Virus record (IMG/VR): IMGVR_UViG_3300028840_006004
Coordinates: 28,627-92,626 of that record
Direction: 5' to 3' (one strand)
Length of the DNA: 64,000 bases
Source: a virus
In this document: positions 6,001 through 61,648 of the stretch, piece after piece
Numbering within the stretch: position 1 is the stretch's first letter
Layout of the letters: each line of letters starts with the position of its first letter
Made by a program: the position numbers and the translations under genes
Notes under the pieces: model-generated
Seen by the model: only the letters and a program-made list of their open reading frames with translations
Database searches by the model: none
Told to the model about the DNA's origin: nothing

Positions 6001-9000
6001 CCGCTTAACGAATTCATCGATGAACTGACGTTCTTCTCCAAATGGATCCAATCGCCATTTTGAATTATCGTCTTGGTGATAAATCGAGTGCTCGTTGCCT
6101 TGACCTGAAGGTAATTTCTCAATATGATTCTGGGTAACATCTACCATTAATTCCATCATTGTGGTAATTGTATCCAGTAATTGATCAGCAATATCAAGTT
6201 TATTAATCCACTCTGCTCCATTGTCGATCGGGAGATTTGGATTTCCGAATACAATCTGAGCGTCATTGATGATATCAGCAATGGAGGTTTCAGCTCCATT
6301 TGATAATGTGAATTTATTATTCAGCATTCCCAGTAAAAGTCCCAGCTTATATGTACCGATCTTTGCATCACGGAAAGCCTGCGATCTGCCATCCTCATCA
6401 ATTTCAAATAGATCCTTGATAGTTTGAGGCGCATTACGAAGCATTTCTCTTAAATGTTCCTGCATAACAACTTCAGGCATCGCATCAATTGTACCCTCAT
6501 ATTTAGCCAGTATACCGGCATCACGCTTAGTATTGAATTGTTCGACATCAGCTACTCTCTGAGCAAGATCACCTTCATCTACAATATCATCACCTATTCC
6601 TGTTTCAACAGGTTTTCCTTCGATAACTTCAACTGCATTATCATAAATCAGATTCATTATTTCGACAGCTCTCTTACCCTGCTCAAGCGCACCGGTAAAT
6701 ACGCCAACAGCGGTTTCATCATAGAGCATCGCTTTTACATTGCCGAATACCTTAACAGCATTTTCGATATACTTATTGATTTCAGTATTCAAACGCTGTC
6801 CCTTCTTAATCATTTGTCTGCCATATTCCCCTCTGGCAATAACTTCATTGATAGCATCCACTATCCCAAGACCAGTTTTCTTTGGAAATAATACTGCTGG
6901 TTTTCCTTCGCCTTCTTCAATTGTTGTTGCAACTTCACGACCAGCTGTTTCGGAAACACCTGCCTCTTCCTGAATTCTAATTTCCTCTTCCCATTCTGCT
7001 ATCTGAGCATCGAGCCCTTCATCCTTGCTTCCACGTTTTTTCCTGGCTTTCATATCAGCCAGTTCTTTACGTAATACTGTCAATGGTTTTGCAACCTTAG
7101 CTGCAGCTTTTCCTTTTTTAGGAGGCTGTTCCAAGACTTCTTCAAAGTCAAATGTTTCACCCTCGATCCTTGCCATTTCAGCAAGCGGTGACTGTAGGTC
7201 AAGATTTTCCAGATTACTTTCCTGCGCCCTGGAATTGTGAGCATCAATTACTGACTGAAGACCATTCGGTCCCCATTCTTTAAGAGCTTTGGTCAGCATT
7301 TCCCATACAGGATATATTTTACGATCATTCAACGCCTCGAGTATTACCTGGCTGGTTGAATTTTTGATCTTTTTCATTTCCTTTTGGTAGGCATCTACTG
7401 GAACAACATCACCATAACGTTCCTCGATATTCTTCTTGGCTTTTTCAGAGATCAGTACATCAACTGCATACAGACCGTTCATTTTTTCAGTGAATACTTG
7501 AGAGGTAGTAACCTCAACACCATCAACTACATTGGTCTTTTTTTCTGTAAGCATTTTCTCATAAGCATCATTACGTTCAATCCAGGCTTGAATTTCCTTT
7601 TCGTCAGTAATACGCTTAACACCTATTTTATCCCATTCAGCATTAAGAGCCTGCTCTCTCGCTTCAGGTTCTAATTGCTCATTATCCATAATCGCCAAAA
7701 TCCCTTTAAGGGATTTGGTTGTTTCTTTTGTCTGTAAAAGGTCGAACAGAAAAGATTTATCACCTCCGAGTGTTTTTATTAACTCAGGATTATCCAGATT
7801 ATGTTCATTGATTGCGGCAACATAATATTCAAGATCTTGACGGAAACCTACTTTAACATCATCTCCGACATTTTTTTCGAGATGGCCCATCTTAACCCAG
7901 CTGTCCACCATACCATCAATTTTATCGAATACGGTAGGATCATCTTTGGCTCTCATAGCAAGATCCATCATCTGTTGTCCCTGGCGATTTTGACCTGCAG
8001 TAATATTATGAGCGATACCCATAGTAAAAGTAGATGATAGAAACGCAATAGCAGGCTCCTCCCAACTGAAACTCTCATCAAGCGTTCTGGATCCATCGAG
8101 GATACCTTTAGAAAATTCGATTTGACGCTCAATTTTCCTCTTCTCTTTCTCGTTCACACGATCAATTGTAATACCATTGGAATTCTTCATGGCATAATCA
8201 CCACCAGGTAGCGGATCGAATGTAGCACCTCCATTCTTACGGAGATTATTTTTAGCCATATTCCTTTCAATAGCATTAAAAAGCGAAGCGAAAGTCATGT
8301 GACCTACACCCTCAGCTGCCTCTTCAAAACCTTCTTCAACACCTGCGCCTACAGCTTTGCCTGCTCCTTTAAGCAATCCTTTTCCCGCAGCCATCTTATG
8401 AAAGTTCCTTCTCAAAGCTCCAGTATATTTATTGGCCCAGAATCCTTTTGCCGGCATTTCTAATGCTTCAGCTTCAGCTAATCCTTTTACCATTCCTCCG
8501 GACACATCCTCGATTACTTCGGCTGCAGAAACTCTACTGAGATTATTAAATATTCTCTGTCCTTGCTTCACACCAAATCTTTGTACAAGGTTAGCTGAGA
8601 TAATATTTTCTGAACCGTGAGTAATAAGTCCGAACATTAATCCCATTGCTTCAGCCTCCTGGGCTGAGTATCCTTTTCTGACAAGATCATTACGTGTAAG
8701 ATCATATACTGTAAGAGATCCTATACTGATTGACATTTGAGTAGCAAGTTTGGTTCCGACACCAGCTGCGCCCAGGGAGAAACCTGATGCGATCATCGGT
8801 AAGAATTGACCAACTCCGTCCCAAAATGAATACAATATTGAATTGGCATTATCAAACACACCTACAGCTTCGTCATAATTTTGACGTTGCATTGCTGAGG
8901 CTGCATTTGACCATTGGTTCGCAAGATCATTTAATTGACTTGCGTTGACCGCTTCTGTATAAGAACGATCTGTACCGACCATCAAAGCCGGTGCTGCAAC

Positions 9001-9735
9001 AGCATTAAGTACATGGAGTAATCCACCTCCAGCCTGAACAGTTTTTCCTACTGCGCCAGAAATAGTACCTCGAGATGCAGATCCTAACCAGGTAGAGTTT
9101 AGCTCCCGCGCTCCTCCTACCCATTCATAAGGTTTAATCTTAGCAGGATCCCCGAGCTCACCATCCTTGAGCTCCCGATAAACCCATGTATTTAGTTTTT
9201 CATCCCACTCATTCTGAAGTTTATTTGTGTTGGAACGTTTGTCGTATTCCTCTAATGGAAGAAGAATACCATTACGATCATAATAAAGCTCATTCTTTTC
9301 AGCGATCTGATCCTGATGTTCTATGATTACTGGTTGTTCAAGTCCAAGAAAATTGGCATAATTGGAAGGGCCTGTATTAATCCAGGATTCATCTTTATCG
9401 AACCATTTTAACTGGCCTTTCTCAGCCTCGGTTCCACCACCCGTATCATAAGTGCCTTCATAATCATAAAGATTCCACCTGCGGTTTTTATAAATATCAA
9501 ATTCCGCCTGCGCATGACCATAAGCAAATTTAAGATCTTCTTCAGGTATTTCCTTATCGGTTTTTGACTGCATTAAGGTAGAGAATTCCTCGTATGATTC
9601 GAGCTCTACCGGTAAATTGAAGTTTTTTTCTGCCTGGTAGATTGCTGTCAAGTCATGTTCCTGCATACGCGATTGGACATAATTGATCGCTGTTGGCTGC
9701 CTACCCTGGCCGTCACTTCCTGCTAATTTTGTCAT
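1..9735 (-). CDS. Giant virion/ejected polyvalent protein (>3245 aa, 3' end outside window) with N-terminal hydrophobic segments, SF1 (RecD/Dda-like) helicase domain and zincin (HExxH) domain; positional equivalent of the crAss virion RNA-polymerase-associated giant proteins
   Basis: ATG at 9733-9735 overlaps the upstream TGA (ATGA). No stop in the segments translated, and the track would have listed a closed ORF if one existed. Motifs: GYAGSGKS (5032-5055), IIIYEEGS, VILGDEGQ, LNQIFRT, TAVSRA (4063-4080), HESLH (913-927), EYLAE (799-813). Confidence 0.88.
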   Translation of the reverse strand, partial: MTKLAGSDGQGRQPTAINYVQSRMQEHDLTAIYQAEKNFNLPVELESYEEFSTLMQSKTDKEIPEEDLKFAYGHAQAEFDIYKNRRWNLYDYEGTYDTGGGTEAEKGQLKWFDKDESWINTGPSNYANFLGLEQPVIIEHQDQIAEKNELYYDRNGILLPLEEYDKRSNTNKLQNEWDEKLNTWVYRELKDGELGDPAKIKPYEWVGGARELNSTWLGSASRGTISGAVGKTVQAGGGLLHVLNAVAAPALMVGTDRSYTEAVNASQLNDLANQWSNAASAMQRQNYDEAVGVFDNANSILYSFWDGVGQFLPMIASGFSLGAAGVGTKLATQMSISIGSLTVYDLTRNDLVRKGYSAQEAEAMGLMFGLITHGSENIISANLVQRFGVKQGQRIFNNLSRVSAAEVIEDVSGGMVKGLAEAEALEMPAKGFWANKYTGALRRNFHKMAAGKGLLKGAGKAVGAGVEEGFEEAAEGVGHMTFASLFNAIERNMAKNNLRKNGGATFDPLPGGDYAMKNSNGITIDRVNEKEKRKIERQIEFSKGILDGSRTLDESFSWEEPAIAFLSSTFTMGIAHNITAGQNRQGQQMMDLAMRAKDDPTVFDKIDGMVDSWVKMGHLEKNVGDDVKVGFRQDLEYYVAAINEHNLDNPELIKTLGGDKSFLFDLLQTKETTKSLKGILAIMDNEQLEPEAREQALNAEWDKIGVKRITDEKEIQAWIERNDAYEKMLTEKKTNVVDGVEVTTSQVFTEKMNGLYAVDVLISEKAKKNIEERYGDVVPVDAYQKEMKKIKNSTSQVILEALNDRKIYPVWEMLTKALKEWGPNGLQSVIDAHNSRAQESNLENLDLQSPLAEMARIEGETFDFEEVLEQPPKKGKAAAKVAKPLTVLRKELADMKARKKRGSKDEGLDAQIAEWEEEIRIQEEAGVSETAGREVATTIEEGEGKPAVLFPKKTGLGIVDAINEVIARGEYGRQMIKKGQRLNTEINKYIENAVKVFGNVKAMLYDETAVGVFTGALEQGKRAVEIMNLIYDNAVEVIEGKPVETGIGDDIVDEGDLAQRVADVEQFNTKRDAGILAKYEGTIDAMPEVVMQEHLREMLRNAPQTIKDLFEIDEDGRSQAFRDAKIGTYKLGLLLGMLNNKFTLSNGAETSIADIINDAQIVFGNPNLPIDNGAEWINKLDIADQLLDTITTMMELMVDVTQNHIEKLPSGQGNEHSIYHQDDNSKWRLDPFGEERQFIDEFVKRFKKVINDSWKMDKRLESASTERESVKVKLGNQSRMLHHMRSVAIDAGNDDIKHKLTKDDIATVTNKSRKISEIIKKTISKYKTTSDVENADNDHVYPEQLYPLYYNSIYTSDGKSPEKNSVKAAIALIDKELMDIEEIFSGKLGGFIEHVKKTSNNELPYISTEIADEPVYNMSSGTYDGLASVRKYDDGRVVWKSFSDYKKEGGKKSASEYIQEQKFRQEEYEYSLYTFSYFQFLSVANSLGNGKTNTRRQMLAQAEKLNLNNLTKANNDDLETFEQLDAIVDVVAFMQSQDKEDWNYPEGTREMLIDHTLFVRGYAGSGKSAMVAKNALLYYAALENKAIDVLYIIPTKGVEKIHSDAVEEINTRLSEIGSEATINPVFIPAHDLVNNEDLYKDADIIIYEEGSTIPAPDPVEENAKEEGNLLRSWQREHKKRVVILGDEGQVKSLNNSHALYPVDNFGEKTNALNQIFRTGIIYIRALQEGYRRALGVTTEQIDEAIGTTETKWKTSPDGNVGVRYIKRTEGLDQIVQNFLDQVEFAEANETGKTQMLLVPTYANMEQLIDKYGDRLGMHKDKIFTLEYDAKKIRQDSKRFKYNASGLKADQVFIPFDMASMLEGDAGLFALPESGGREGDAVAIMLTAVSRASQYVEMFGNPEISGKVTDNTPISGYSTTIETDEDVLARLTAQRMERAAYFEIVGTEEKEVTDEEEGTDKKKKKKKRKGKKKAKLDDLYKVDSQMYFGDGGYNIDDAEAAFKKTTETKTYPGFRHASDIAAQWLQDKQEKTESQILENKQLKERRAIFDVAFQRVIAKEDEVESIENLLDSLIRKYRPMNKEEKDADKENQGKGTARWNGRVNGFKRRMIAVAQEVAETMGYNEFSVHRPNIKPKDLDIQGSPYMIKTVGYDENGNPIVDIFTRTYTLHPRELNKYGQALAHTYRFIAEEKGWIVNNVYNVNIADSKSWIEIEKSDLPAEYFVDQVESTDVPIEDVAKAIGLKRTEFRIADPTVLFALKRKIDVAHLGDGVDIFTSDPIVEKETGEAYFVRDLLLDKNGLIANLENQVTGEIITVPQSYLTHNIWNPVEGTPELIRERSAIEYKTDRTIYVTHMLAPQSSPDFNEAEWKKKMGSGANMFNRKKNKWFDLKLKSLDAITKLPAKMSVLDKIYRVSAVYTVPNRSTRSYEGEIYNNVFEIRFTEEQLDFVAKEIGISKKQMKELGLDFVGIDTPAEARVPNNKDKKFSDNWLSKVPEFNKWLGMPFKDAKQAVYAYLEDSFAKSIKNQELLENTIDMNVAKFVQVHKAHNNQTPGTTGTKVTIEKNLLMPSRAQRMSFIGLLEQMQNDGFSLVQDLDDEGFITPLKYSRDKRGGRFNILISFKDPDGNIVDVIFDAAPMKRAPKSNESDIDVIKSFFTGATQELKKYDALVQEIEEMWNEDIEDNPEFKALTKRAQDGIVRESLISRWMDANSEMATSMIASDPNLERFFKTKEVTSKSGVTYKNIQVKGGTYKQRLLNLKAAVPHIIKAIENRYADQNGNLTATTKIAGRSRPLRFYYPVIVRDDDSKKVNVEYLTTNTIGVNQSVARSKSANIGPKPKDAKTGQEDIGQTSDNDNPFQTGFKKYGKKWVPGQTTYISKEAALQRIAQLIGSENAQKYLGFEDGLIIYKGTAHWGIVKNGLMKIAQISKGIEGTTPDHESLHFVIEYLMGDKQRISLINAAKKELPAGATYGDAHEYLAEKFEYENYRPTTYIGRVLLQIKKWLYSKFKLFSSDIQTILAQVDDGYFANNEYKIPSNPEAIIFPKVADIENEFNTDIVRKQKTFLFGSNENIDFWAERNIAPMIFSFYGIGKSVSAKEKFAGVHSFQSAVQKVYQTLMEYHDYYMSRREAGKVFRYFDGSEIIEGEEKPYVVYGEIPNSVYIAVSKTMRELKNKSLSIYKDVEQASYAENKKLIDAYIIQELTRPASKQATNPAGKTIFYNLVQTIFGNVDMTKTTKSGDPFFTLE

Positions 9736-13266: not shown

Positions 13267-13590
13267 TTATGCTGTTTCTTCTTCTACAAGCTCTTCATCA
13301 GGTTCAGGTTCTTTAACCTGCTTGGTTCCCATATTCATTAATCCACCAAGAGCAACGGTGAATTGTCCAGTTCCCATTAAACCTCTTTTGAGCTTTTCGT
13401 TTTCATCAATTATGTTACTATGAACCTGTTCGTTTAATGAAGCAACCTGGTTGCCGAACAGACCTGCATTTCTCAACGATATCGGATCTGGAGAGAATGT
13501 TTTGTGCGTTTCGGTTACATTCTTAGTACCAATCGCTCCAGCAGCTATTTCTGCAGCTGTTCCTACTGCCTGTGTTATTAATCCTATCAT
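13267..13590 (-). CDS. Small putative internal virion/ejection protein (107 aa)
   Basis: N-terminal MIGLITQAVGTAAEIAAGAIG resembles podovirus ejection proteins; ATGA-coupled to the muzzle gene. Confidence 0.6.
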   Translation of the reverse strand: MIGLITQAVGTAAEIAAGAIGTKNVTETHKTFSPDPISLRNAGLFGNQVASLNEQVHSNIIDENEKLKRGLMGTGQFTVALGGLMNMGTKQVKEPEPDEELVEEETA

Positions 13591-27141: not shown

Positions 27142-27145
27142 GGTA

Positions 27146-27180
27146 CAAAATTAATTTAAAATTTAAAAAATATCAATAAG
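27146..27180 (-). promoter_or_regulatory. Bacteroidota sigma-A-type promoter (ATTG-N20-TAATTTTG) for the scaffold/MCP operon
   Basis: TAATTTTG at 27146-27153, 4 nt before the ATG; ATTG at 27174-27177. Confidence 0.65.
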
Positions 27181-42030: not shown

Positions 42031-43095
42031 TTAATAAGGTACTGCCCTGAAATATTGTAACATGTCTTCCGTGACAATCTTAAACGGAATTACAGTGTCG
42101 CCAACCTGCTTTGCATGATATAAAAATCCATCAGGCTGAACAAAGAGCATATTGTTGTTTATATTATAAGGTATACCTGGTTTCAAAAGTATTCCACCAT
42201 CAACCCACCAAAATCCTTTCTCAAATGTCGAGGTGTACCACCTGTCAGGCTCACTCCAGTAAGTCGAAAACCACATCTTCCCATCACGCTGAGTATCTGA
42301 CATTCCAAATTCCAGATTTGCAACATAAGTAGTCGTATCATTTCCTTTTATAAATACCCTGATCTGAGCATTTAATCCTTTTACCGGTGAAGGTGTTTCA
42401 ATAATTACATCAATAGTTGGTGTCTTTTGATTAGAATACGGCGTTACCCTGTGAACAACCATAGCGGCGGAATCAGGAATACCAGTATCCAGATATATAT
42501 AAGGACTGAATGTTGAATCCGAACTCGGCGGAGGAACTCCACCACCACCACTCGCATAATAATTCGGAAATAAGGATTCCAGTTTAGTAGTGTCCCCTTC
42601 AAACCACTCAGGGTAAGGATATGTGTAACGGCAATTATTTGTCGTTATCGGATCTTCCGCTTCATGGATCTTGTATGGCCCTGCATTGAAATAACAATTT
42701 GAGTAAAGAATGTTATCCGTAATATGAAAATGCCCGCTCGGATAAAAAAACAAACTCAGATTGGATAACAACGCATAATCAATAGCAAAACTGTCCGACA
42801 CAACAAGATAATCAAACCTGTTCAAAGCCAGCATAACCCGAAGATTAGTTCCATTCCATGCAGAGCTTGAGTCCGGATGCATGATGTCCTGCAGGTAGAT
42901 CTCATTTGAATAGAATTTGTAAACCTCCTCATAAGGCGATTGGGATTTGTTTAACTGCTGTCGTGGATATGTTCGCTTCTGAATAACCTGGGCCTTCCCG
43001 GAAAGCCAGAATCCAAAAGAAATAAGTAATGAAATTATTATCACAACAAAAAATTTAAACCAATAGGTTTTCCAGGGTTCGTTAATTCTTCTCAT
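42031..43095 (-). CDS. Secreted/membrane protein (Sec signal ending KA-Q), 354 aa
   Basis: Hydrophobic N-terminus; YPEWF motif; GGGGVPPP linker. Confidence 0.65.
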   Translation of the reverse strand: MRRINEPWKTYWFKFFVVIIISLLISFGFWLSGKAQVIQKRTYPRQQLNKSQSPYEEVYKFYSNEIYLQDIMHPDSSSAWNGTNLRVMLALNRFDYLVVSDSFAIDYALLSNLSLFFYPSGHFHITDNILYSNCYFNAGPYKIHEAEDPITTNNCRYTYPYPEWFEGDTTKLESLFPNYYASGGGGVPPPSSDSTFSPYIYLDTGIPDSAAMVVHRVTPYSNQKTPTIDVIIETPSPVKGLNAQIRVFIKGNDTTTYVANLEFGMSDTQRDGKMWFSTYWSEPDRWYTSTFEKGFWWVDGGILLKPGIPYNINNNMLFVQPDGFLYHAKQVGDTVIPFKIVTEDMLQYFRAVPY

Positions 43096-43419
43096 TTATT
43101 TTATTTTTAAAAAATGTTTCGCACTCGTAATGGCAATCTCCAACGCCTGATCAGTAACTCCATTAATAAATATTGCATCATAAAAACGCTTGCCTTTTAA
43201 GTAAATCGTGTTTTCGATTTTAACAGCTTCGTCTTCCGATGGTAAGAGCTCATGCCTTTTAATAAGGATAGGCCCTGGCACTTTCATCTTCATTTCATTC
43301 AAGATCTTCAGGTACTCAAGAAAATCTTTTGTAAGCATATTTCGCGGACGATCACCGTCCATGAACTGATACATGTTTGTGTTGTAATCAGGCAACCGAT
43401 CATTGATCCAGAATCCCAT
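43096..43419 (-). CDS. Hypothetical protein
   Basis: Tightly packed ORF. Confidence 0.6.
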   Translation of the reverse strand: MGFWINDRLPDYNTNMYQFMDGDRPRNMLTKDFLEYLKILNEMKMKVPGPILIKRHELLPSEDEAVKIENTIYLKGKRFYDAIFINGVTDQALEIAITSAKHFLKIK

Positions 43420-43420
43420 A

Positions 43421-43648
43421 TCAATTCATTTGAATAATCAATTTATTTAATCTGGCGGTATCATCTAAGGCATGCATGACAGATTCCGTTTGCACCGTAG
43501 TATAGTGCGTACCGGCGGTGGTTTCAATAATAGTGATCCCGTCTTTTCTTTTGACCTCGATCACATATAATGGATTCAGCCATGCGGTGTAGTTTGCCGC
43601 ATGAGGCCCTTCCATTTTAAAGCAGTTAAACCTGCACAATTTGAACAT
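43421..43648 (-). CDS. Small beta protein, FlbD-like pattern
   Basis: WLNPLYVIEV...TIIETTAGTHY. Confidence 0.45.
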   Translation of the reverse strand: MFKLCRFNCFKMEGPHAANYTAWLNPLYVIEVKRKDGITIIETTAGTHYTTVQTESVMHALDDTARLNKLIIQMN

Positions 43649-43964
43649 TGCTTACCTTTTTTTTATAAATTGAAATAGTTTCTCCAGTATATGCTTCATT
43701 GCCGTTAAACTCGAAATATATACGCCTTCCATCTTCTGTAAGAGTGAATGAACCCAATTCATCAGATCCCGTTTCGCCGGTAAGTTCCCATCCATCCCGG
43801 ATTCGTCTATTACTTCCTGTTCCAATCCAGGCCGCATCATTATACCTTCTCCAGAGGCCCGTTTGCGGGCACTGATACCTTGACGCTCCGTCCTGGAATC
43901 CCGGAATCCTTTTTTGGTTGTACTTAACTTTTTTAACTTCTTGCGCGTTCTCATTAGTTCCCAT
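43626..43964 (-). CDS. Hypothetical protein
   Basis: ORF with A-rich leader. Confidence 0.55.
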   Translation of the reverse strand: MGTNENAQEVKKVKYNQKRIPGFQDGASRYQCPQTGLWRRYNDAAWIGTGSNRRIRDGWELTGETGSDELGSFTLTEDGRRIYFEFNGNEAYTGETISIYKKKVSNVQIVQV

Positions 43965-43976
43965 AATATTTAATTT

Positions 43977-44201
43977 TTATGATTTCTTAATTCTGTTTTC
44001 GTATAACGCCTTTCCTCTTTTTGATTTTGCATAATCGGAAAGCGCCACGATAAAACCATTCTTCTCGTACCATCCCTGGTCCCGTTTAAGTGCTTTTCCA
44101 AGACCCCCCGGGCTCATTTTAATCACTCTCGCCGCTTCAGACCTATCGGTACATACATGGACTTTTTTATCTTCTTTTAGTATAATAACATGAACTTTCA
44201 T
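43977..44201 (-). CDS. Small HTH DNA-binding protein (NUMOD1-like); start MKVHV at 44201
   Basis: DRSEAARVIKMSPGGLGKALKR. Confidence 0.6.
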   Translation of the reverse strand: MKVHVIILKEDKKVHVCTDRSEAARVIKMSPGGLGKALKRDQGWYEKNGFIVALSDYAKSKRGKALYENRIKKS

Positions 44202-44205
44202 ATAG

Positions 44206-44213
44206 CAAATATA
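44206..44213 (-). promoter_or_regulatory. Consensus Bacteroidota -7 box TATATTTG at the head of the minus-strand module
   Basis: TTTTTTG-TATATTTG-CTAT-ATG. Confidence 0.65.
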
Positions 44214-44419
44214 CAAAAAAGTATCATTCTATTCCGCGCCATTAAAAACTTTTTTAAAAATCTCGGTTAGGGTATAAGACCTTTTGACCCTTAATCCGGT
44301 TTTCCGTAATAAAAACACCCCCCGTAGATAGTTTACACGCTTGCGAGATAACCCCCATACCCCCCGCATAGCTTACAGTAATTAAAGTTAATTTAATAAC
44401 ATTAAAAAATTCGTGCTTT

Positions 44420-44722
44420 ATGTATTTAACAAAAGAACAGTTTGACAATGCAGTAATCGGCAAAGGCTTGATAGATGCCGATACCAACTATGACCAAGTA
44501 ACCATTGTGGAAACAAAGGGAACAAAGGAATGGCGACCAACTATTATGCAGACAAGCAAAGAAAAGGTGAAACACGTTGTAGAGTTTGAAACCTTGATTG
44601 GCTTGGTGCGTGAAAGTGGGAAAGCTAAAGCAAAGAAGGAAGGTAACAAGATCGTTGGTTACGATTTTGACTGGAAAGATATTCCAATGAAAGTTAAAGA
44701 TGGTACATTAATGAATGCATAG
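44420..44722 (+). CDS. First gene of the plus-strand (early) module, hypothetical
   Basis: Clean ORF followed by its own terminator. Confidence 0.75.
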   Translation: MYLTKEQFDNAVIGKGLIDADTNYDQVTIVETKGTKEWRPTIMQTSKEKVKHVVEFETLIGLVRESGKAKAKKEGNKIVGYDFDWKDIPMKVKDGTLMNA

Positions 44723-44744
44723 TTAAACTCTAAAGAGTAGTGCC

Positions 44745-44784
44745 TAACACCCTGAACTGATATGTTTGGGGTGTTATTTTTTTT
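44745..44784 (+). terminator. Intrinsic terminator
   Basis: TAACACCCTGAAC/GTTTGGGGTGTTA followed by T8. Confidence 0.85.
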
Positions 44785-44945
44785 GGTTTGCATTCTATAT
44801 AAGGATGTGAAGGATACATTACGTATAACAGGATGACTACATTCAAGCTCGAATGATATTTTTTTAATTATAGCACAATGACTACGTGTCAAGTGCAACT
44901 GTGTACACCAGATTGGATATTAATCACCACTAAATAAGAAGAAAA

Positions 44946-45257
44946 ATGAAAACATTAATTTATTCATTGCTCGTGATAGCTATTATGAGCAGTTGTACAG
45001 GCACATCAACACGAATACAAGTGTTAGATGTAGACTCACAACAAATCGAAACAGTAAGGCTTGGCAAGTATGCTGGGCATATCCACATGAATGATACAAT
45101 TGTAATCGAAGAGTATTTCAGCTCAGTATCGATACGCAATGAAATCTATTCACTAAATGTTGATGAATTACCTAAAGTAAGTTTCATTTATTCCAATGAT
45201 TCGTCAGATGTATCAATGTTCAGTTATTACAGAGCAATTGTTTTATCAGATATTTAA
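44946..45257 (+). CDS. Putative lipoprotein
   Basis: MKTLIYSLLVIAIMSS-C lipobox. Confidence 0.7.
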   Translation: MKTLIYSLLVIAIMSSCTGTSTRIQVLDVDSQQIETVRLGKYAGHIHMNDTIVIEEYFSSVSIRNEIYSLNVDELPKVSFIYSNDSSDVSMFSYYRAIVLSDI

Positions 45258-47666: not shown

Positions 47667-48006
47667 TGCCGAGATGGGCGGACCAAAGCTTTTTATCGTA
47701 TTTATTGCGATCAGCTTTGGCTCGTCCTCTCTTTTTATTCGCTTCTTTAAATCTCTCGTGTGATTTCTCAATAGAATATTTATCGATTATATCTTGAGGT
47801 TTGGTAAATAGGTAAAAGAATTTTCCAAAGAATAATACTGCAGGATTATTAGAATACAGGAAATCAAAGATCCGAAATGTTGCTGGTTTATGTATAAGCC
47901 ATATATCTTTTTCTGATACTTCTCCTACATATTTTTGAACCGTGGCTGACTTATTTATCTCCTCAGCAAATATCTTTGCAAATCGTCCAATCTTAACAGT
48001 TTCCAT
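47656..48006 (-). CDS. Antisense gene inside the early module (116 aa from METVK), basic C-terminus
   Basis: TATTTTTG box at 48012-48019, 5 nt before the ATG; covers a stretch with no long plus-strand ORF. Confidence 0.55.
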   Translation of the reverse strand: METVKIGRFAKIFAEEINKSATVQKYVGEVSEKDIWLIHKPATFRIFDFLYSNNPAVLFFGKFFYLFTKPQDIIDKYSIEKSHERFKEANKKRGRAKADRNKYDKKLWSAHLGTNI

Positions 48007-48443: not shown

Positions 48444-48725
48444 ATGAGCTTTTCTACTCAGAAAGGCGAAGTAGTCATCGAAAAAGATGGCCCAATTACA
48501 GTTATACATACTGAACGAGATGATTTATTCTCTAAACAATTGAAAGTTATCATACGTAAACAAATCGAGATCGAACTTGACTTCAAGAATGTTGTTCTCC
48601 ATGAAAATTATGAAGGCTTTGTGTTCGATAATAAGGTATACTTTCGCGTTGGAGAACGATATTTAGGACTTGGTCCAAAGTATTTAAATGGTAAATTAAA
48701 CATTCACAAAGCAGGAATATGTTAG
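48444..48725 (+). CDS. Hypothetical protein
   Basis: ORF from MSFSTQ. Confidence 0.55.
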   Translation: MSFSTQKGEVVIEKDGPITVIHTERDDLFSKQLKVIIRKQIEIELDFKNVVLHENYEGFVFDNKVYFRVGERYLGLGPKYLNGKLNIHKAGIC

Positions 48726-49999
48726 GAATAGAGGAACGGGCCAAGCTTGAAAGAAAGATCCTGGGAGCATTCCTTGAATTACCTCAGCTTGGTAAAGTTG
48801 AATGCGTCAAACTCAAATCAAATTATTTCACTTCAGAAACACGACAAAATATATTTAATTTCATTTTGTCAGAATCGAAAAAGGGTAAAGTCGTCACCTT
48901 AAATGAAATTAATGAAACAGAGCTTGATATTCAGGAAATCACAGAGTGTGTGCTCGCTTCTAATCTTCCTAACTTAAAACCTAATATACGTGAGTTAATC
49001 ACGGAAACATTCTATGATGACCTGTGGAGATTAGGTCAGAGCATACAAGATATGGTAGTAAATGATGCAACACTCGAAACTATTATTCAAGAGATCTCTA
49101 AAGTAACATCTCAATTGGATCCAGATTTCGAAAATGAATATGATATGACCATGGACCAAGCTCTCGGTAAAATTGAAACAGGACAATTACGATACAAAGA
49201 ATATCCTATCGGCTGGAAAGCTATTGATGAACACATGCCATTCTCTTCTCAAAGTATTACCATTGTTGGAGGTAATGAAGGTACGTTCAAGACCAAGCTA
49301 ATGATTTACTGTGTGCGTTTGCTCTTAATGAAATATCCGAACATTTCTGTTCTATGGTATTCAATGGAAGATCCGGCAGATAAATTGATTCGTGGCTTTG
49401 TAGCTCAGGAAACTTTGTTAGATGATGCTACTCTTAAACGTGGCCGTTGGCAAGATATTATTCCAGATGATGTTAAAAAATACGATATTGAGTTCGTAAC
49501 TAAAAGCTCCACAATAAAAGAAGTGGGACAGAAATATGCAGAATTCAGATCTAAACGGGATGGTAAATTCAACCTTTTAATTATCGATAATATTATGAAG
49601 ATTATTCCGATAAATAAAGGCCGCGAAATGGATGTTGACTTAGAAATTATCCGGGAAATTGAATCCTGGAACATCAAAACCAGTCCTAAAGAGAATGCTG
49701 TTATTTTGCTACATCATTTCACGAAGGCTACTCTCGAAGAAAGCAATCTGAAAAATGCCTATGAGCCTGAAATGATCCACCTCAGAGGTGCTGGTAGATA
49801 CAAAGACTTTTGTACCAATGCCATGCTGATCAATTCTATGTATTATCATAGTTCAATTAAGAAATTATTTAAGAGAAATGTTGACTTTATCGAAAAATAT
49901 TACATCGTTAAAATCGATAAAAATAGGAACGGCAAGAAGAAGATTATACGGATGCTTGCCTATCCAGAATTTAATCATTTCTACCAAATCGGTAAGTGA
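48719..49999 (+). CDS. DnaB-like replicative helicase
   Basis: N-terminal LERKILGAFL; GGNEGTFKT (variant Walker A), YSMED, LLIIDN, LRGAG, KIDKNRNG. Confidence 0.85.
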   Translation: MLGIEERAKLERKILGAFLELPQLGKVECVKLKSNYFTSETRQNIFNFILSESKKGKVVTLNEINETELDIQEITECVLASNLPNLKPNIRELITETFYDDLWRLGQSIQDMVVNDATLETIIQEISKVTSQLDPDFENEYDMTMDQALGKIETGQLRYKEYPIGWKAIDEHMPFSSQSITIVGGNEGTFKTKLMIYCVRLLLMKYPNISVLWYSMEDPADKLIRGFVAQETLLDDATLKRGRWQDIIPDDVKKYDIEFVTKSSTIKEVGQKYAEFRSKRDGKFNLLIIDNIMKIIPINKGREMDVDLEIIREIESWNIKTSPKENAVILLHHFTKATLEESNLKNAYEPEMIHLRGAGRYKDFCTNAMLINSMYYHSSIKKLFKRNVDFIEKYYIVKIDKNRNGKKKIIRMLAYPEFNHFYQIGK

Positions 50000-51777: not shown

Positions 51778-51787
51778 CTTTTATTTA

Positions 51788-52363
51788 ATGCTTATGTGTT
51801 TAGAAACTTATCATAAACCAAAATTACGTACAGCTAATCAAGATCTACATGTTTTTAAGATTGTTGTACAACATAGAAATCCAGATTCATTAGGACAATG
51901 GTTTACACCGTTTCAGCATGTGCCAATTGAAAAAAATGGTTCCTATACTGCAAATGTGCCTACTTATACAGAGAATTCATATAGATATCCTCCGGACACT
52001 TATAGATTTTTGATCAAGGCTGGTATTAATTCATTTGCTACTCTTGAAGGTGCACGTAAAGCTGTATTCGATTATAAAAAATCGATGGGATTAACATCAT
52101 TTACTAATCCTACAATTGTACCGTGCTTAATTCCTAAAGGATCTCAATATTATAAAGGTTTTTTTGGTATGAATAATTTATGTTACGCTTCTACAGCAAT
52201 AACATATCCGTCATCATTTAAAGGAATACCGCATATAAAAAAAGAAAAGAAAGATGAAAAACAAGATTCACATGTTCTTCCATTGCAAAAAATGCATAAA
52301 AGAAAAACCAGATGGAATATCTCCAAGAGATTACGCTTCATTAGAAGTTGGATGGACTCCTAA
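51788..52363 (+). CDS. Conserved crAss-like hypothetical protein (MCL...CLIPKGS.YY.G...YAS family)
   Basis: Recognisable motif pattern. Confidence 0.65.
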   Translation: MLMCLETYHKPKLRTANQDLHVFKIVVQHRNPDSLGQWFTPFQHVPIEKNGSYTANVPTYTENSYRYPPDTYRFLIKAGINSFATLEGARKAVFDYKKSMGLTSFTNPTIVPCLIPKGSQYYKGFFGMNNLCYASTAITYPSSFKGIPHIKKEKKDEKQDSHVLPLQKMHKRKTRWNISKRLRFIRSWMDS

Positions 52364-52493: not shown

Positions 52494-52529
52494 TTGAAAA
52501 GATGAATAAAATTAAACTTTCATTTTAAA

Positions 52530-52745
52530 ATGACTGATATATTCAAACTTACTTATAAAGTAGGAAACAGAGAATTTCCTCTTTATTTTGACAGTCAAGA
52601 CAGAGCTGAACGCTTTAGAAATGTAATTCTTGAAATAGCAACTGATCGTAACCATCCGGCTGTACATCCTAAAGCTGAAATCATAAAATTAATTGATTCA
52701 GATGCAGATATTGTTGATGCAGCCAAAGCATCTGGAATAATATAG
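52530..52745 (+). CDS. Hypothetical protein
   Basis: ORF. Confidence 0.6.
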   Translation: MTDIFKLTYKVGNREFPLYFDSQDRAERFRNVILEIATDRNHPAVHPKAEIIKLIDSDADIVDAAKASGII

Positions 52746-52751
52746 TAAAAT

Positions 52752-53430
52752 AGGGTTAAGACTTCATAACTCCGCCCTGTTTTAATCTCCTGCCTGAAAG
52801 CAAATAGTAAGAAAACAGGAATGCGGATGAAGATTTGCTGAAAATCAATGTGAGTGCAAAATATCAAGCTGGCTCTGAATATATTACAGCCTGCAGTAGG
52901 CGTTGTTTGTGGAAGGGATAACAAATTAAATATTACCATCACTTGAAAAGGTGAAAAAGGTCGTTCTTCGGATATATCTGGGTGGTTAAGTCCAGCTGGC
53001 TCAGTCCCAGAAAATATTTAAATTATTCACTGACTGCACAGTGACAGGAGATTTTTAAAACATACTCAATAGAACCATTGAGATAACTTGCAGGTACAAG
53101 ATTGGAATGGAATAATGGTTGAAACCCCAACTGATCCTCTTTATCATAGCTGATGTAAGTTCAGGTAATATGGCGAACCTCCAACGCCTGCAGGTTTTTT
53201 TAAATAATGTGTATGCATCAAGGCTACCAGTAACAAGTAGAAATACTTTCGGTACTATGGCATAAATATTAGTGGTGGCGATGTTACTGGTTCAGTCCAC
53301 TAAGCACATTTAAAAGAAGCGAGGCCGAGTACTTAAACAGCTTGTTCACAGGTTCCGAAAGATATCAAGATGAGCAAGGGTACGATGATGGTGACTAAGC
53401 AGGATATGGCCTATCACCCGCTTCTTTTTA
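52752..53430 (+). ncRNA. Large, multi-domain structured non-coding RNA candidate (~680 nt)
   Basis: Largest gap without a plus-strand ORF in a dense genome; many 5-10 bp helices, several crossing (see findings); strand inferred from flanking genes and G-U pairs. Confidence 0.7.
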
Positions 53431-53445
53431 TAAAATTTACTTCAC

Positions 53446-53691
53446 ATGGGAATATTAATGGAAAGATTACAGGCACAGCTGAAAAGACCTGACTATAAAA
53501 AAGATGCTGAAGATTGTATAAAAATATACAATTGGATAAAAGAAACAGATCCGGAAGGTAGAGTATGGAATAGCAGATGGCGACCTTTAGTAGATGTTGC
53601 ATTCAAAGGATTTCCAAGTGATGAAAGAAATTATAAACCTTCTATTACTGGATATGCTGTATTAAAAGGAATTGAAAATGAAGAGAAATAA
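53446..53691 (+). CDS. Hypothetical protein
   Basis: ORF. Confidence 0.6.
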   Translation: MGILMERLQAQLKRPDYKKDAEDCIKIYNWIKETDPEGRVWNSRWRPLVDVAFKGFPSDERNYKPSITGYAVLKGIENEEK

Positions 53692-53875
53692 TTTACCGAT
53701 GCAGAACAGATTGAATGCTGCAGGAATTACTACATTTCGTACAAATATATGGCCTCCTGGAGCTCATAGTGTCACTGAAAATGTGTATCTTAGATATAAA
53801 GACAAAACCACAAAACGCCCTCATGTAATGCGTTGTCCTGATATTGTAAAAACAAAATTTGGTATAGAAATATGA
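53672..53875 (+). CDS. Hypothetical protein
   Basis: ORF; ATGA-coupled to the helicase. Confidence 0.55.
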   Translation: MKMKRNNLPMQNRLNAAGITTFRTNIWPPGAHSVTENVYLRYKDKTTKRPHVMRCPDIVKTKFGIEI

Positions 53876-55368
53876 TTACACTACGAGATTATCAAGACAA
53901 AATTGTGAAGAAAACTCAAGAGAGTCTTCGTCATGGAAACAAAAGAATCATGGTGTGCGCACCAACTGGTGCCGGGAAGACTGTTATCTTCTCCTACATC
54001 GCAAAGAAAGTCCAGGAACAGGGTAAAAAAGTACTGATGGTCACTCACAGGAAAGAGATCCTGTTTCAGACTGGAGGTACATTTGATAACTTCGGCATAT
54101 TAGCCCATGAGCTGACCGCTAAGACACGCTTTGTTCCAGACGGAGATATAGTCGTTGCAATGGTAGAAACGCTATTCAGGCGCATGCAGAATCGTGGAGA
54201 GTATGAAAATTTTGTTTCTGACTTCGACCTAATAATTGTAGATGAAGGACACATCGGTAATTTCGATAAGATATTTGAATTCATACCACGTAATAACATA
54301 GTTCTTGGTTTCTCAGCTACGCCGTATAGAAAAGGACAGGCCAATAGCCTTGACTCGTATTATGATGATCTTATCCAGGTTGTCGATGTTCCGGACTTGG
54401 TTAGTGATGGATGGCTTTCAAAGCCTTCTACTTACGGAATGCGTATCAATTTAGACAATGTTAGACTGTCTAATGTGGATTACAATTCAGAAGATATGCA
54501 CCACGAATTCATTGATCAACGTGTGTATGAAGGAGTGATCAAAAATTACAACAAGCATACTCCAAATAAAAAAGCTATTCTGTTTGCAGCTTCAGTGGAA
54601 TCCTCAATGGATATTAACTGGCGATTTAATCAAATCGGTATTCCATCGGCCCATGTGGATGCCAATACACCTGATGAAGAGCGCAGAAGAATATTCCAAT
54701 TGTTCCGGGAAGGTGATATCAAGATTTTGTGTAATGTAGGCATTGCTACTATGGGTTTTGATGATCCAACCATCGAAGTTGTTATTCTCTATCGCGCTAC
54801 TAAATCTTTGCCATTGTTTTTGCAAATGTGCGGTAGAGGATCCAGGATAGCTGATGGTAAAAATGAATTTGTTATACTTGATTTCGGTAACAATTCATCT
54901 CAGCATGGATTTTGGGAACAACCACGTAATTGGTCATTGCAAAATGATACAGAAAGATTTCGTAGAGAAAGCAGTATGACTAAAGAATGTCCCAACTGCG
55001 AGAGAATGGTTCCAATTGGTACAGTAGAATGTGTATGTGGATATGTATGGCAACGTACCAGGATCGAGCAAATCGAAGAGCGTATTGAAGCAGATCTTGA
55101 ATTACTCGATGGTTTCCAGTTGCAAATCTATGCCCTGGGTAAAACATTTGAAGAACTCAGGATCATTCAACAAAAGAAAGGATATAAAGAGTCCTGGATA
55201 TTGCATCAGCTAACATCTGAAGAAGAGCTCAGAGCCTATGGTCAATGGCGTAATTACAAATCAGGATGGTTTTGGTATGCACGTCAAAAATTTGAACCAA
55301 AGACTATCGAACAACGTGAAGCTGAAATTGAAGAATTCAAAGAACAAAATCGTTTAAGAAATATGTGA
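53872..55368 (+). CDS. SF2 DEAH-box helicase (RadD/YejH-like) with C-terminal zinc ribbon
   Basis: LRDYQ, APTGAGKT, DEGH, SAT, GFDDP, QMCGRGSR, CPNC..CVCG. Confidence 0.92.
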   Translation: MITLRDYQDKIVKKTQESLRHGNKRIMVCAPTGAGKTVIFSYIAKKVQEQGKKVLMVTHRKEILFQTGGTFDNFGILAHELTAKTRFVPDGDIVVAMVETLFRRMQNRGEYENFVSDFDLIIVDEGHIGNFDKIFEFIPRNNIVLGFSATPYRKGQANSLDSYYDDLIQVVDVPDLVSDGWLSKPSTYGMRINLDNVRLSNVDYNSEDMHHEFIDQRVYEGVIKNYNKHTPNKKAILFAASVESSMDINWRFNQIGIPSAHVDANTPDEERRRIFQLFREGDIKILCNVGIATMGFDDPTIEVVILYRATKSLPLFLQMCGRGSRIADGKNEFVILDFGNNSSQHGFWEQPRNWSLQNDTERFRRESSMTKECPNCERMVPIGTVECVCGYVWQRTRIEQIEERIEADLELLDGFQLQIYALGKTFEELRIIQQKKGYKESWILHQLTSEEELRAYGQWRNYKSGWFWYARQKFEPKTIEQREAEIEEFKEQNRLRNM

Positions 55369-57555: not shown

Positions 57556-58279
57556 TTTTAAACCGGCCATTGATCAAAATGGAAATCATAGATCCTGGAC
57601 CGGTCGAAACAATGCTACATTCTATGTATTTGATACAGTATGGAGCAATGGTGTTACCGGTCAACGGAATGCCAAATCACAAAGCCCGAGTTGGGAAGTT
57701 GGAAAAGAATATGAAATCCAGCATGAAGAAAAATCTGCAAACAATTATACCTGGACTCAAATTACCAAGATGGATGATCCTGATAGAAGTAAAGGTGGCG
57801 GTGGAGGACGTTACAAAAAAGAAATGTCCAAAGAAGAGCAAAAGGAAATAATGATGCAGGTTGCCATGATTGCCGCTAACTCCATTATGAATAAACTTGC
57901 TGAAGATTACAATACAATCATTGCCAGGTTTATGAATTGGTTAGTTCAGGAAGGTTTCAAGCCTAACAATAAAGCCATTGGTGTCCAAGGAGTCTTAAAA
58001 ATAGCGTGTGAATACTGGGCACAAGTTCCTACTCAACAAGTTACACTGGAAGCAATAATTGATCACGCAAACAAATGTTTAACCGCAGTAAATCAAGCAC
58101 GTACATGGAGAGAAAGCAGTCCCCAGCAGAGAAGCTCGCCAAGCTCAGAGCAAAGCATGGCAACAAATCAAGAGAATCAACCGAGCTTCCAACCAGAACA
58201 TCAGAACCAGCCGGATCCGAACCAGAGCGAAAACTCGATACAGGACGGGAAAGGACCAGAGAGCTTCCTGATCGTTTAA
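57536..58279 (+). CDS. Putative ssDNA-binding/annealing protein (OB-like N-terminus, Q/P-rich tail)
   Basis: W.GRN...YVF, WEVGKEYE, GGGGG linker; lies between the ATPase and the exonuclease. Confidence 0.5.
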   Translation: MKAKLLSFKPAIDQNGNHRSWTGRNNATFYVFDTVWSNGVTGQRNAKSQSPSWEVGKEYEIQHEEKSANNYTWTQITKMDDPDRSKGGGGGRYKKEMSKEEQKEIMMQVAMIAANSIMNKLAEDYNTIIARFMNWLVQEGFKPNNKAIGVQGVLKIACEYWAQVPTQQVTLEAIIDHANKCLTAVNQARTWRESSPQQRSSPSSEQSMATNQENQPSFQPEHQNQPDPNQSENSIQDGKGPESFLIV

Positions 58280-61024: not shown

Positions 61025-61648
61025 ATGGGACAATACTACAAACCTGTATGCATTGACTCCAGAGAGTATATGTATACGCATGATTACGATAGCGGATTAA
61101 AGTTAATGGAACATTCCTGGATACTAAATGATTTTGTTTGGGCAGTTGAAGGATTGCTTACGCCTAAAGGACGTTGGTGTGGACAAAGAATTGTCTGGGC
61201 AGGTGACTATATGGATGAAAAATTATTTATTGATATGAATTCTTCAGAATCCCAAAGAATCATTGATCATATTTGGAAGGAGAATCTTGAACAAAAAGAA
61301 GAACATCGTAGATATAAGAGCAGGGAGGAGGTTGGTTTCACTCTGTATCATTTTGCATCCGAAGCCTATCGAAAAATAAAACCTGCATTTGTAAATATGC
61401 TTGAAGCAAGATTCTTTTTTATCAATAATATAAATAAGGAAGTGTTTGTTGACAAGCGTGAATGTCCAGAAGATGATGGCTGGATAATTCATCCATTACC
61501 ATTATTAACCTGTTCCGGTAACGGACGAGGCGGAGGTGATTACAGAGGAGATAATCCTCATGTAGGAACTTGGGCTGGTGACAGGATTATTATTACTAAA
61601 GAACCGATGAAAGAATACAAAGAATTTAAACCCGATTTTGTAGAATAA
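61025..61648 (+). CDS. Conserved hypothetical protein (MGQYY...GLKLMEH...GTWAGDRI family)
   Basis: Internally duplicated GRWCGQRI / GTWAGDRI. Confidence 0.7.
   Translation: MGQYYKPVCIDSREYMYTHDYDSGLKLMEHSWILNDFVWAVEGLLTPKGRWCGQRIVWAGDYMDEKLFIDMNSSESQRIIDHIWKENLEQKEEHRRYKSREEVGFTLYHFASEAYRKIKPAFVNMLEARFFFINNINKEVFVDKRECPEDDGWIIHPLPLLTCSGNGRGGGDYRGDNPHVGTWAGDRIIITKEPMKEYKEFKPDFVE

Follow-up and report, generated by a model that had tools for sequence, protein, structure and literature searches.

A 700-nt non-coding gap in a distant crAss-like phage genome as a candidate intergenic structured RNA

The 92,626-bp IMG/VR virus record IMGVR_UViG_3300028840_006004 (G000), for which distant crAss-like phage is a fair label to judge from its predicted proteins, contains a 700-nt gap between a cluster of small genes and an operon opened by p81, a gene for an 81-aa protein. 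We analysed this gap within a window of 64,000 nt, which covers bases 28627-92626 of the record and whose numbering is used here unless another sequence is named. The gap is genuine and unusual, it codes for no protein and its signals of RNA folding are moderate; we regard it as a candidate phage intergenic structured RNA, not as an established new class. In our favoured reading, to which we assign a probability of about 0.4, it would be a rightward-transcribed, lineage-specific non-coding region of stem-closed RNA modules, some of them with terminator-like ends. This reading starts from direct observations: the gap is non-coding, its helices lie at defined positions, inverted repeats are enriched within it, T runs stand beside the 3' arms of such repeats and hairpins precede p81 in other phages. 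The gap is a single sequence with signals that are suggestive but not decisive, and its value is mainly that of a candidate.

Non-coding status and inverted repeats of the gap

A preliminary description of this DNA had singled out a 700-bp gap without an open reading frame (ORF) in an otherwise gene-dense genome, and this was borne out, as all six frames are closed and coding potential is absent.

52746-53445, + strand: non-coding gap, larger than any other intergenic region of the genome; 700 nt, with stops in six frames

TAA, TAG and TGA each occur in every one of the six frames and nothing longer than about 50 codons stays open, so that no stop-codon reassignment opens the gap and recoding can be ruled out. 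Coding potential was scored by a dicodon scan trained on the phage's own genes. Windows starting at 52660-53320 score between -0.5 and 0.02, the 5th percentile of the genome being -0.16; a single window at 53350 reaches 0.22, and the flanking 71-aa and 81-aa ORFs are positive in their own frames. A 115-aa ORF on the minus strand (52595-52942) was rejected as spurious, with no coding potential, no family and an overlap with the coding-scoring 71-aa ORF. No protein of G000 or of its relative G001 aligns to the gap, and a decayed gene was dismissed on the same grounds, there being neither leftover coding signal nor protein alignment. Among the 21 intergenic regions of at least 40 nt in the 92,626-bp genome, the runner-up measures 223 nt; a second apparent gap, at 57556-58074, proved to be coding after all. 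The GC content of the gap is 38.9% and even along its length (35-42% per 100 nt), compared with 34.7% for the other intergenic regions pooled. No part of the gap has a second copy in the 92.6-kb genome, and the template repeat of a diversity-generating retroelement was excluded as no near-repeat occurs elsewhere in it.

The gap had also been described as filled with complementary segments, and inverted repeats of 7-9 bp are indeed enriched to about three times the level of shuffled sequences. Exact inverted repeats number 40 at k=7, 17 at k=8 and 6 at k=9, against 20.0+/-6.0, 5.2+/-2.9 and 1.4+/-1.4, respectively, in dinucleotide shuffles, and only 1-3% of the 700-nt windows in the 64-kb window match these counts. 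Since the gap was chosen for its missing ORFs and not for its repeats, this enrichment is a fair test, at roughly p = 0.01. The inverted repeats each differ in sequence and their arms lie 46 to about 290 nt apart, a pattern expected from strand folding rather than from repeated protein-binding sites. All of the helices listed earlier (17/17 pairs) and both T-loop-like strings were found exactly in place.

The T-loop-like strings GGTTCAGTCC and GGTTAAGTCC belong to a recurring 12-mer, CTGGYTCAGTCC, with one mismatch. This 12-mer was discarded as a meaningful repeat, our own estimate being about 0.5 chance recurrences with one mismatch per 700 nt; it has no other occurrence in G000, in the related genomes G001 and G008 or in the first 12 kb of the Cellulophaga phage phi14:2. 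A junction motif, AUUGRAGAUA, was likewise set aside, having given scattered single matches only.

Proposed modules A to D and the T runs of the gap

We group the helices into four putative modules and one long-range pairing. Pair probabilities (P) come from a nested partition function of the full 700 nt, in which crossing pairs are not scorable. The z-score of a module refers to the sub-domain folded alone, and is optimistic because module boundaries were picked after the helices had been seen.

52762-52832, + strand: module A, an interrupted 19-bp hairpin just past the stop of the 71-aa ORF; helices verified
52778-53061, + strand: long-range helix AATCTCCTG (52784) / CAGGAGATT (53045); P 0.71
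52889-53201, + strand: module B, closed by a 13-bp bulged stem CCTGC-AGT-AGGCGTTG / CAACGCCT-GCAGG, then T7; z -1.8
53206-53310, + strand: module C, with the closing stem AATGTG(T)/(G)CACATT enclosing the 10-bp helix ACCAGTAACA/TGTTACTGGT; helices verified
53312-53433, + strand: module D, closed by a 10-bp stem AAAAGAAGCG/CGCTTCTTTT that ends in a T run; P 0.91

Module A, folded as 52760-52842, has a z-score of -3.6 on the plus strand and -3.4 on the minus strand. Its P in the full-length ensemble is 0.14-0.19, a low value that reflects competition between its 5' arm and the long-range helix 52784/53045. That helix comprises 9 bp, or 14 bp with GTTTT/AAAAC across a bulge, and its 3' arm enters a T5 run. 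It also crosses the closing stem of module B, so that the two can exist together only as a pseudoknot, and the P of that closing stem is low (0.08-0.15) for this reason. The value of -1.8 for module B was obtained on the plus strand with 52888-53196; its inner hairpins TCACTG/CAGTGA and CTCAAT/ATTGAG reach P 0.93 and 0.85.

Module C, folded as 53204-53312, gives z -2.3 on the plus strand versus -1.0 on the minus strand, with P 0.85 for the closing stem and 0.95 for the inner helix; read from its sequence, it shows a 7-bp acceptor-like stem stacked on a 7-bp stem. Module D (53310-53430 folded, z -1.4 on the plus strand) ends 17 nt before the ATG of p81. Over the full length, the helices of modules C and D and the small hairpins of module B have P 0.79-0.95. 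Certain pairings contain a U.G pair that is valid on the plus strand only and becomes a C.A mismatch on the minus strand, namely the internal helix of module D CTTGTTCA/TGAGCAAG, CACTT-GAAA-AGGTG and AATGTGT/GCACATT.

Each of the three T runs of at least 5 nt within the gap is associated with the 3' arm of a long-range repeat. Two of them come immediately after, or take in, the arm of a perfect repeat of 9-10 bp, and the third comes after the 13-bp bulged one: CAGGAGATT leads into TTTTT at 53052, TTTTTTT at 53195 comes after CAACGCCT-GCAGG, and CGCTTCTTTT leads into one more T, with ATAAAA next, at 53425. Over the whole genome, an exact arm of at least 8 bp adjoins 19 of the 122 T runs on the transcribed strand, and about half of these 19 sites are ordinary short-loop terminators in intergenic regions; the arm in module D is the longest found beside a T run, tied with two other sites. 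Canonical hairpin-plus-T terminators are used in this genome and are oriented as its genes. Like intrinsic terminators, the stems of the gap contain G+C and lead directly into T runs in the direction of transcription. They differ in that intrinsic terminators have loops of 3-8 nt, whereas the stems here enclose 97 to about 290 nt: the stem plus T run at 53182-53201 has a loop of about 276 nt and that at 53419-53433 one of 97 nt, and a consensus scan calls neither. The sole consensus terminator-like match in the gap is a short hairpin at 52889-52901.

Hairpins before p81 in other phages are the only comparative support obtained, and they bear on the right end of the gap alone. In one p81 locus (L139) the local order is as here, with a 198-aa homologue, three small ORFs, a 235-nt gap and p81, and the gap ends in the hairpin AGAAGAGAG/CTCTCTTCT and a T run, 16 nt before the p81 ATG. 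A strong hairpin stands at the same spot before p81 in the loci L142/L143. The closing stem of module D and its T run look like this same element with a 97-nt insertion in the loop.

These features can be assembled into the following scheme. The gap lies between a cluster of small genes of early type and the replication operon of p81, a 67-aa gene and a helicase, and would be transcribed rightward with the rest of the plus-strand block. The transcript would fold into 2-4 separate modules, A-D, and not into one giant pseudoknot. The closing stems of modules B and D and the long-range helix all finish at or within T runs and for this reason could serve as terminators or attenuators, of a large-loop and factor-independent kind. 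Termination at these sites would define where the upstream transcription unit has its 3' end and would leave end-paired, exonuclease-resistant and hence presumably stable non-coding RNAs. Such RNAs may have a trans-acting role like that which the early RNAs of phi14:2 might have. The T4 species 1 and 2 RNAs (rnaC/rnaD), stable small RNAs of a phage tRNA region, are comparable to these modules in that they too are stem-closed and code for nothing.

Known RNA classes, relatives and rival explanations

Searches with Rfam 15 at gathering thresholds gave no match anywhere in the 64-kb window, and at E up to 10 over 52500-53700 they gave only eight chance-level matches to snoRNA, miRNA and leader models (14-20 bits). 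None of the families in question, whether ROOL, GOLLD, HEARO, OLE, raiA, RNase P, introns, riboswitches, HDV-like or small ribozymes, was matched. Covariance models of tRNA and transfer-messenger RNA (tmRNA) did not match the gap at E up to 10; ARAGORN at standard settings found no tRNA or tmRNA in the gap or in the whole genome, and at relaxed settings its match density in the gap equals the genome background. The same tools do recover a tmRNA (50.8 bits) and tRNAs in related loci. The earlier remark that hallmarks of tRNA, tmRNA, RNase P and introns are missing thus agrees with both programs, and ribozyme matches are absent as well. A group I or group II intron was excluded, as no intron model matched and p81 is a complete stand-alone protein and not half a gene: the frame 5' of p81 is closed until 53434, and its homologues (46, of 50-112 aa) start with MGK.

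No homologue of the gap was found by blastn against GenBank phages, by nhmmer against 107 helicase loci or by a DNA search of five related IMG/VR records, nor in G008, 14 p81 loci and the locus L152. A search of IMG/VR for the T-loop-pair pattern came back empty, and a covariance model of modules C and D run against 447 kb of related DNA recovered only itself, with no match in the phi14:2 sequence (L118). Homologues of the operon's helicase number in the thousands; only a handful exceed 60% identity, all of them outside IMG/VR. Identity is 61-70% for the closest helicase homologues (P0002-P0006) and 74-82% for the closest p81 homologues (P0122-P0135); among the metagenome matches listed, the closest helicase locus (63% identical, 1.3 kb) ends short of the gap. 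The nearest relative with DNA, G001, has a major capsid protein 67% identical and a helicase 50% identical to those of G000 and is largely syntenic. Two apparent gaps in G001, at 51778-52166 and 61201-61541, turned out to be small coding genes.

The crAss-like Cellulophaga phage phi14:2 produces two abundant, persistent, rightward early non-coding RNAs from long stretches between genes, g004-g005 and g005-g006, and their function is unexplained (Drobysheva et al., bioRxiv 10.1101/2020.03.07.982082). In the phi14:2 sequence, about 1.7 kb at 2905-4601 lie between g004 and g006, all small ORF calls there having been withdrawn in 2020, and this stretch matches the region which the preprint describes as the source of the abundant long non-coding RNAs. 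The phi14:2 RNAs resemble the gap in that both occupy long stretches without ORFs inside the rightward early/replication block of a crAss-like phage that is marine and of Bacteroidota type, and both are without known function or Rfam family. The phi14:2 regions, however, lie at the very start of the early block, span about 1.7 kb and have 29% GC, whereas the gap lies 8.3 kb in, spans 700 nt and has 39% GC. Neither nhmmer nor sensitive blastn detected significant similarity between the two, and expression has been shown for phi14:2, whereas the gap is known from DNA sequence alone. If the gap is another such RNA, these RNAs would be common in the group but would evolve too fast for detection by sequence, and the gap would offer a compact set of modules with clear stem boundaries for probing.

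In G008, a complete 85-kb genome of a more distant relative (major capsid protein 54% identical), three ORF-poor stretches of 367, 360 and 1,045 nt, about 1.8 kb in all, occur at 42308-45251 (L130 2308-5251), just inside the early block. They contain no tRNA, no Rfam match and no similarity to the gap, and may correspond to the early non-coding RNAs of phi14:2.

Several results weigh against a region of structured RNA modules. The minimum free energy (MFE) of the whole gap is indistinguishable from that of shuffles (z -0.98 on the plus and -0.73 on the minus strand), one of the outcomes that the preliminary description had itself named as speaking against its proposal; sliding 150-nt windows of the gap fold like its coding flanks, and the z-scores of the sub-domains rest on boundaries set with the helices in view. 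The statistical signals (p of about 0.003-0.03) are mutually non-independent. As to comparative data, GenBank phages, the helicase, major capsid and p81 loci of IMG/VR and metagenomes, four related genomes and the phi14:2 region yielded no homologue of the gap, and G001, a family-level relative, has coding sequence only between the corresponding genes. A simple consensus scan finds no canonical terminator at the proposed ends, closing stems with 'loops' of 97-290 nt are unusual for intrinsic terminators, and the plus strand of the gap lacks the host-type promoter box TAnnTTTG.

Part of this evidence would also suit a spacer without RNA function, that is, recent or leftover DNA at an operon junction whose repeats arose by chance or composition and whose right end bears no more than a terminator and a promoter. 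Such a spacer would fit with the lack of conservation in any accessible relative, the coding sequence at the G001 position, the genes that abut p81 upstream in 9 of 15 fetched loci, an MFE z-score near -1 and a 12-mer repeated at the level we estimate for chance. It is harder to reconcile with a genome that is otherwise extremely compact (next intergenic region 223 nt) and with a GC content free of the AT drift seen in other intergenic DNA. Neither leftover coding signal nor protein similarity marks a decayed gene, and the inverted repeats rank in the top 1-3% even though the gap was picked for missing ORFs. We consider a mere spacer rather unlikely, though it is the main rival. A DNA-level replication element, such as an origin or a single-strand initiation site with hairpins in unwound DNA, would suit the location between a DnaB-like helicase and the other helicase with its SbcC-like ATPase, the many inverted repeats and the fact that hairpin A folds equally well on both strands. 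What makes it improbable is that there is no AT-rich unwinding element, GC being 35-42% throughout and above other intergenic DNA, that iterons are missing and short direct repeats are at chance level, that the inverted repeats are all of different sequence and that the GC-skew minimum lies 8.4 kb upstream, near 44376.

The preliminary description favoured one ornate, pseudoknotted RNA of about 650-700 nt, forming a new class comparable to GOLLD and ROOL, with the helix 52784/53045 crossing the stem of module B and an H-type pseudoknot in module C. GOLLD and ROOL (also HEARO, OLE and raiA) share with the gap a length of several hundred nt, many helices, proposed pseudoknots and a phage setting, whereas the gap comes without a covariance-model match, a conserved family or a thermodynamic signal for the whole molecule. 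Every proposed helix exists, the 9-bp long-range helix extends to 14 bp across a bulge with P 0.71, and large unexplained RNAs do occur in phages, crAss-like phi14:2 included. Hairpin A and the long-range helix, on the other hand, compete for the same bases, and the crossing stem TTAGTGG/CCACTAA proposed in module C has P 0.00 in folding by these nested tools. A single molecule would need a long-range pseudoknot, of a kind that such tools do not score. With no Rfam match at E up to 10, a whole-region z of -0.98, T runs after internal closing stems that suggest separate units, and no homologues found, a single ornate RNA appears doubtful and hardly probable. The more specific proposal of a new class of large pseudoknotted, stem-closed RNA in a small marine crAss-like clade, either one molecule or several modules, that works in trans when early gives way to middle expression, perhaps as a scaffold or decoy, is similarly a long shot. 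The non-coding status and the enriched complementarity behind the structured-RNA interpretation hold, one large pseudoknotted RNA is the doubtful part, and the alternative of a tandem set of 2-4 structured RNAs fits better (z -3.6, -1.8, -2.3 and -1.4 for modules A to D). Taking the modular and the single-RNA readings together, the odds that structured RNA is the point of the gap are roughly even. A decayed or highly divergent tRNA/tmRNA-type region, whose tRNA-like remnants perhaps still serve as processing signals, would draw on the neighbourhood of p81, since p81 adjoins tRNA or tmRNA genes in other phages (5 of 15 loci) and G001 carries two tRNAs. Module C with its acceptor-like 7-bp stem stacked on another 7-bp stem would fit, as would GGTTCAGTCC and GGTTAAGTCC, which are one base short of a common T-arm sequence. 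The covariance models at E up to 10 are nevertheless empty, ARAGORN finds nothing at standard settings and only background at relaxed ones, the whole genome lacks tRNAs and similarity to those p81 loci was not found. We have accordingly discarded tRNA/tmRNA remnants as candidates, and this explanation strikes us as very improbable.

Genome setting and neighbouring loci

CrAss-like phages are among the most abundant phages known. The present phage was found in public runs of one sediment and one seawater DNA metagenome, which may be the source samples and are the only public runs with it; they carry the same 89-kb contig, free of variants, and two further runs contain next to none of it. PHROG families are matched by the phage's terminase, portal and major capsid proteins, and its TerL is 24-28% identical to those of Crassvirales, with matches that include Bacteroides, Flavobacterium and Cellulophaga phages. 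Genes run rightward from 44420 through the genome end to base 13323 of G000, and leftward in between. The cumulative GC skew tracks this layout, with its minimum at the divergence point (44376), and the gap sits 8.3 kb inside the rightward block. On its 5' side are a DnaB-like helicase gene (48719-49999) and six small genes without known function; on its 3' side follows a tight operon of p81, a 67-aa gene, a superfamily 2 (SF2) helicase gene, two small genes and a gene for an SbcC-like ATPase. The immediate neighbours are:

52530-52745, + strand: 71-aa ORF, final gene of the small-gene cluster; coding potential positive in its own frame, no Pfam or PHROG family
53446-53691, + strand: p81, 81-aa ORF, opens the p81/67-aa/SF2 helicase operon; 46 homologues
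53872-55368, + strand: SF2 DNA helicase, 498 aa; phrog_16 (E 1e-87), homologues with Pfam helicase domains

The ends of G000 share a 144-bp repeat (1-144 and 92483-92626) that contains a canonical hairpin-plus-T terminator; instead of being physically repeated at the termini, this sequence may stem from overlap in the assembly of a genome that is circular or circularly permuted. On the minus strand, positions 1-9735 belong to a single ORF of 6,810 aa (G000 17929-38361) that is cut by the window start. The homologues in G001 and G008 measure about 6,700 aa and 5,733 aa, respectively, with 23-25% identity over 3,000-4,000 residues, and the product is presumably the giant virion protein that crAss-like phages typically have. 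Bacteroidota-type -7 boxes, TAnnTTTG, occur only 4-5 nt before some starts (47930-47941, and 27142-27153 on the minus strand); if these are promoters, the transcripts would have little or no leader. G001 has two tRNA genes where its early block begins (L117 9483-9562 and 10522-10620; about 69.5-70.6 kb in G001), and one of them is called as tRNA-Phe, with AAA as an odd anticodon.

As far as sequence comparison goes, p81 is a conserved and mobile small gene, whose 46 homologues, at 56-82% identity, occur in phages that are otherwise unrelated. Its AlphaFold model, a confident one (predicted local distance difference test score, pLDDT, of 90), consists of helices, a beta hairpin and then a helix, and a fold search returned only a weak and non-significant resemblance to winged-helix regulators (E of about 0.4). 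In 5 of the 15 fetched loci (L142, L143 and L147-L149), p81 lies within 1.5 kb of tRNA genes and, once, of a tmRNA gene: in L147-L149 it is inside a tRNA array, and in L142/L143 a tRNA and a tmRNA lie 1.0-1.5 kb upstream. The latter loci belong to a 27,976-bp phage contig in which the tRNA and the full tmRNA occupy a 1.1-kb ORF-free stretch (L142 1438-2040 / L143 93-465); this tmRNA was missed by ARAGORN and scores 50.8 bits with Rfam, with a clear acceptor and T-arm domain.

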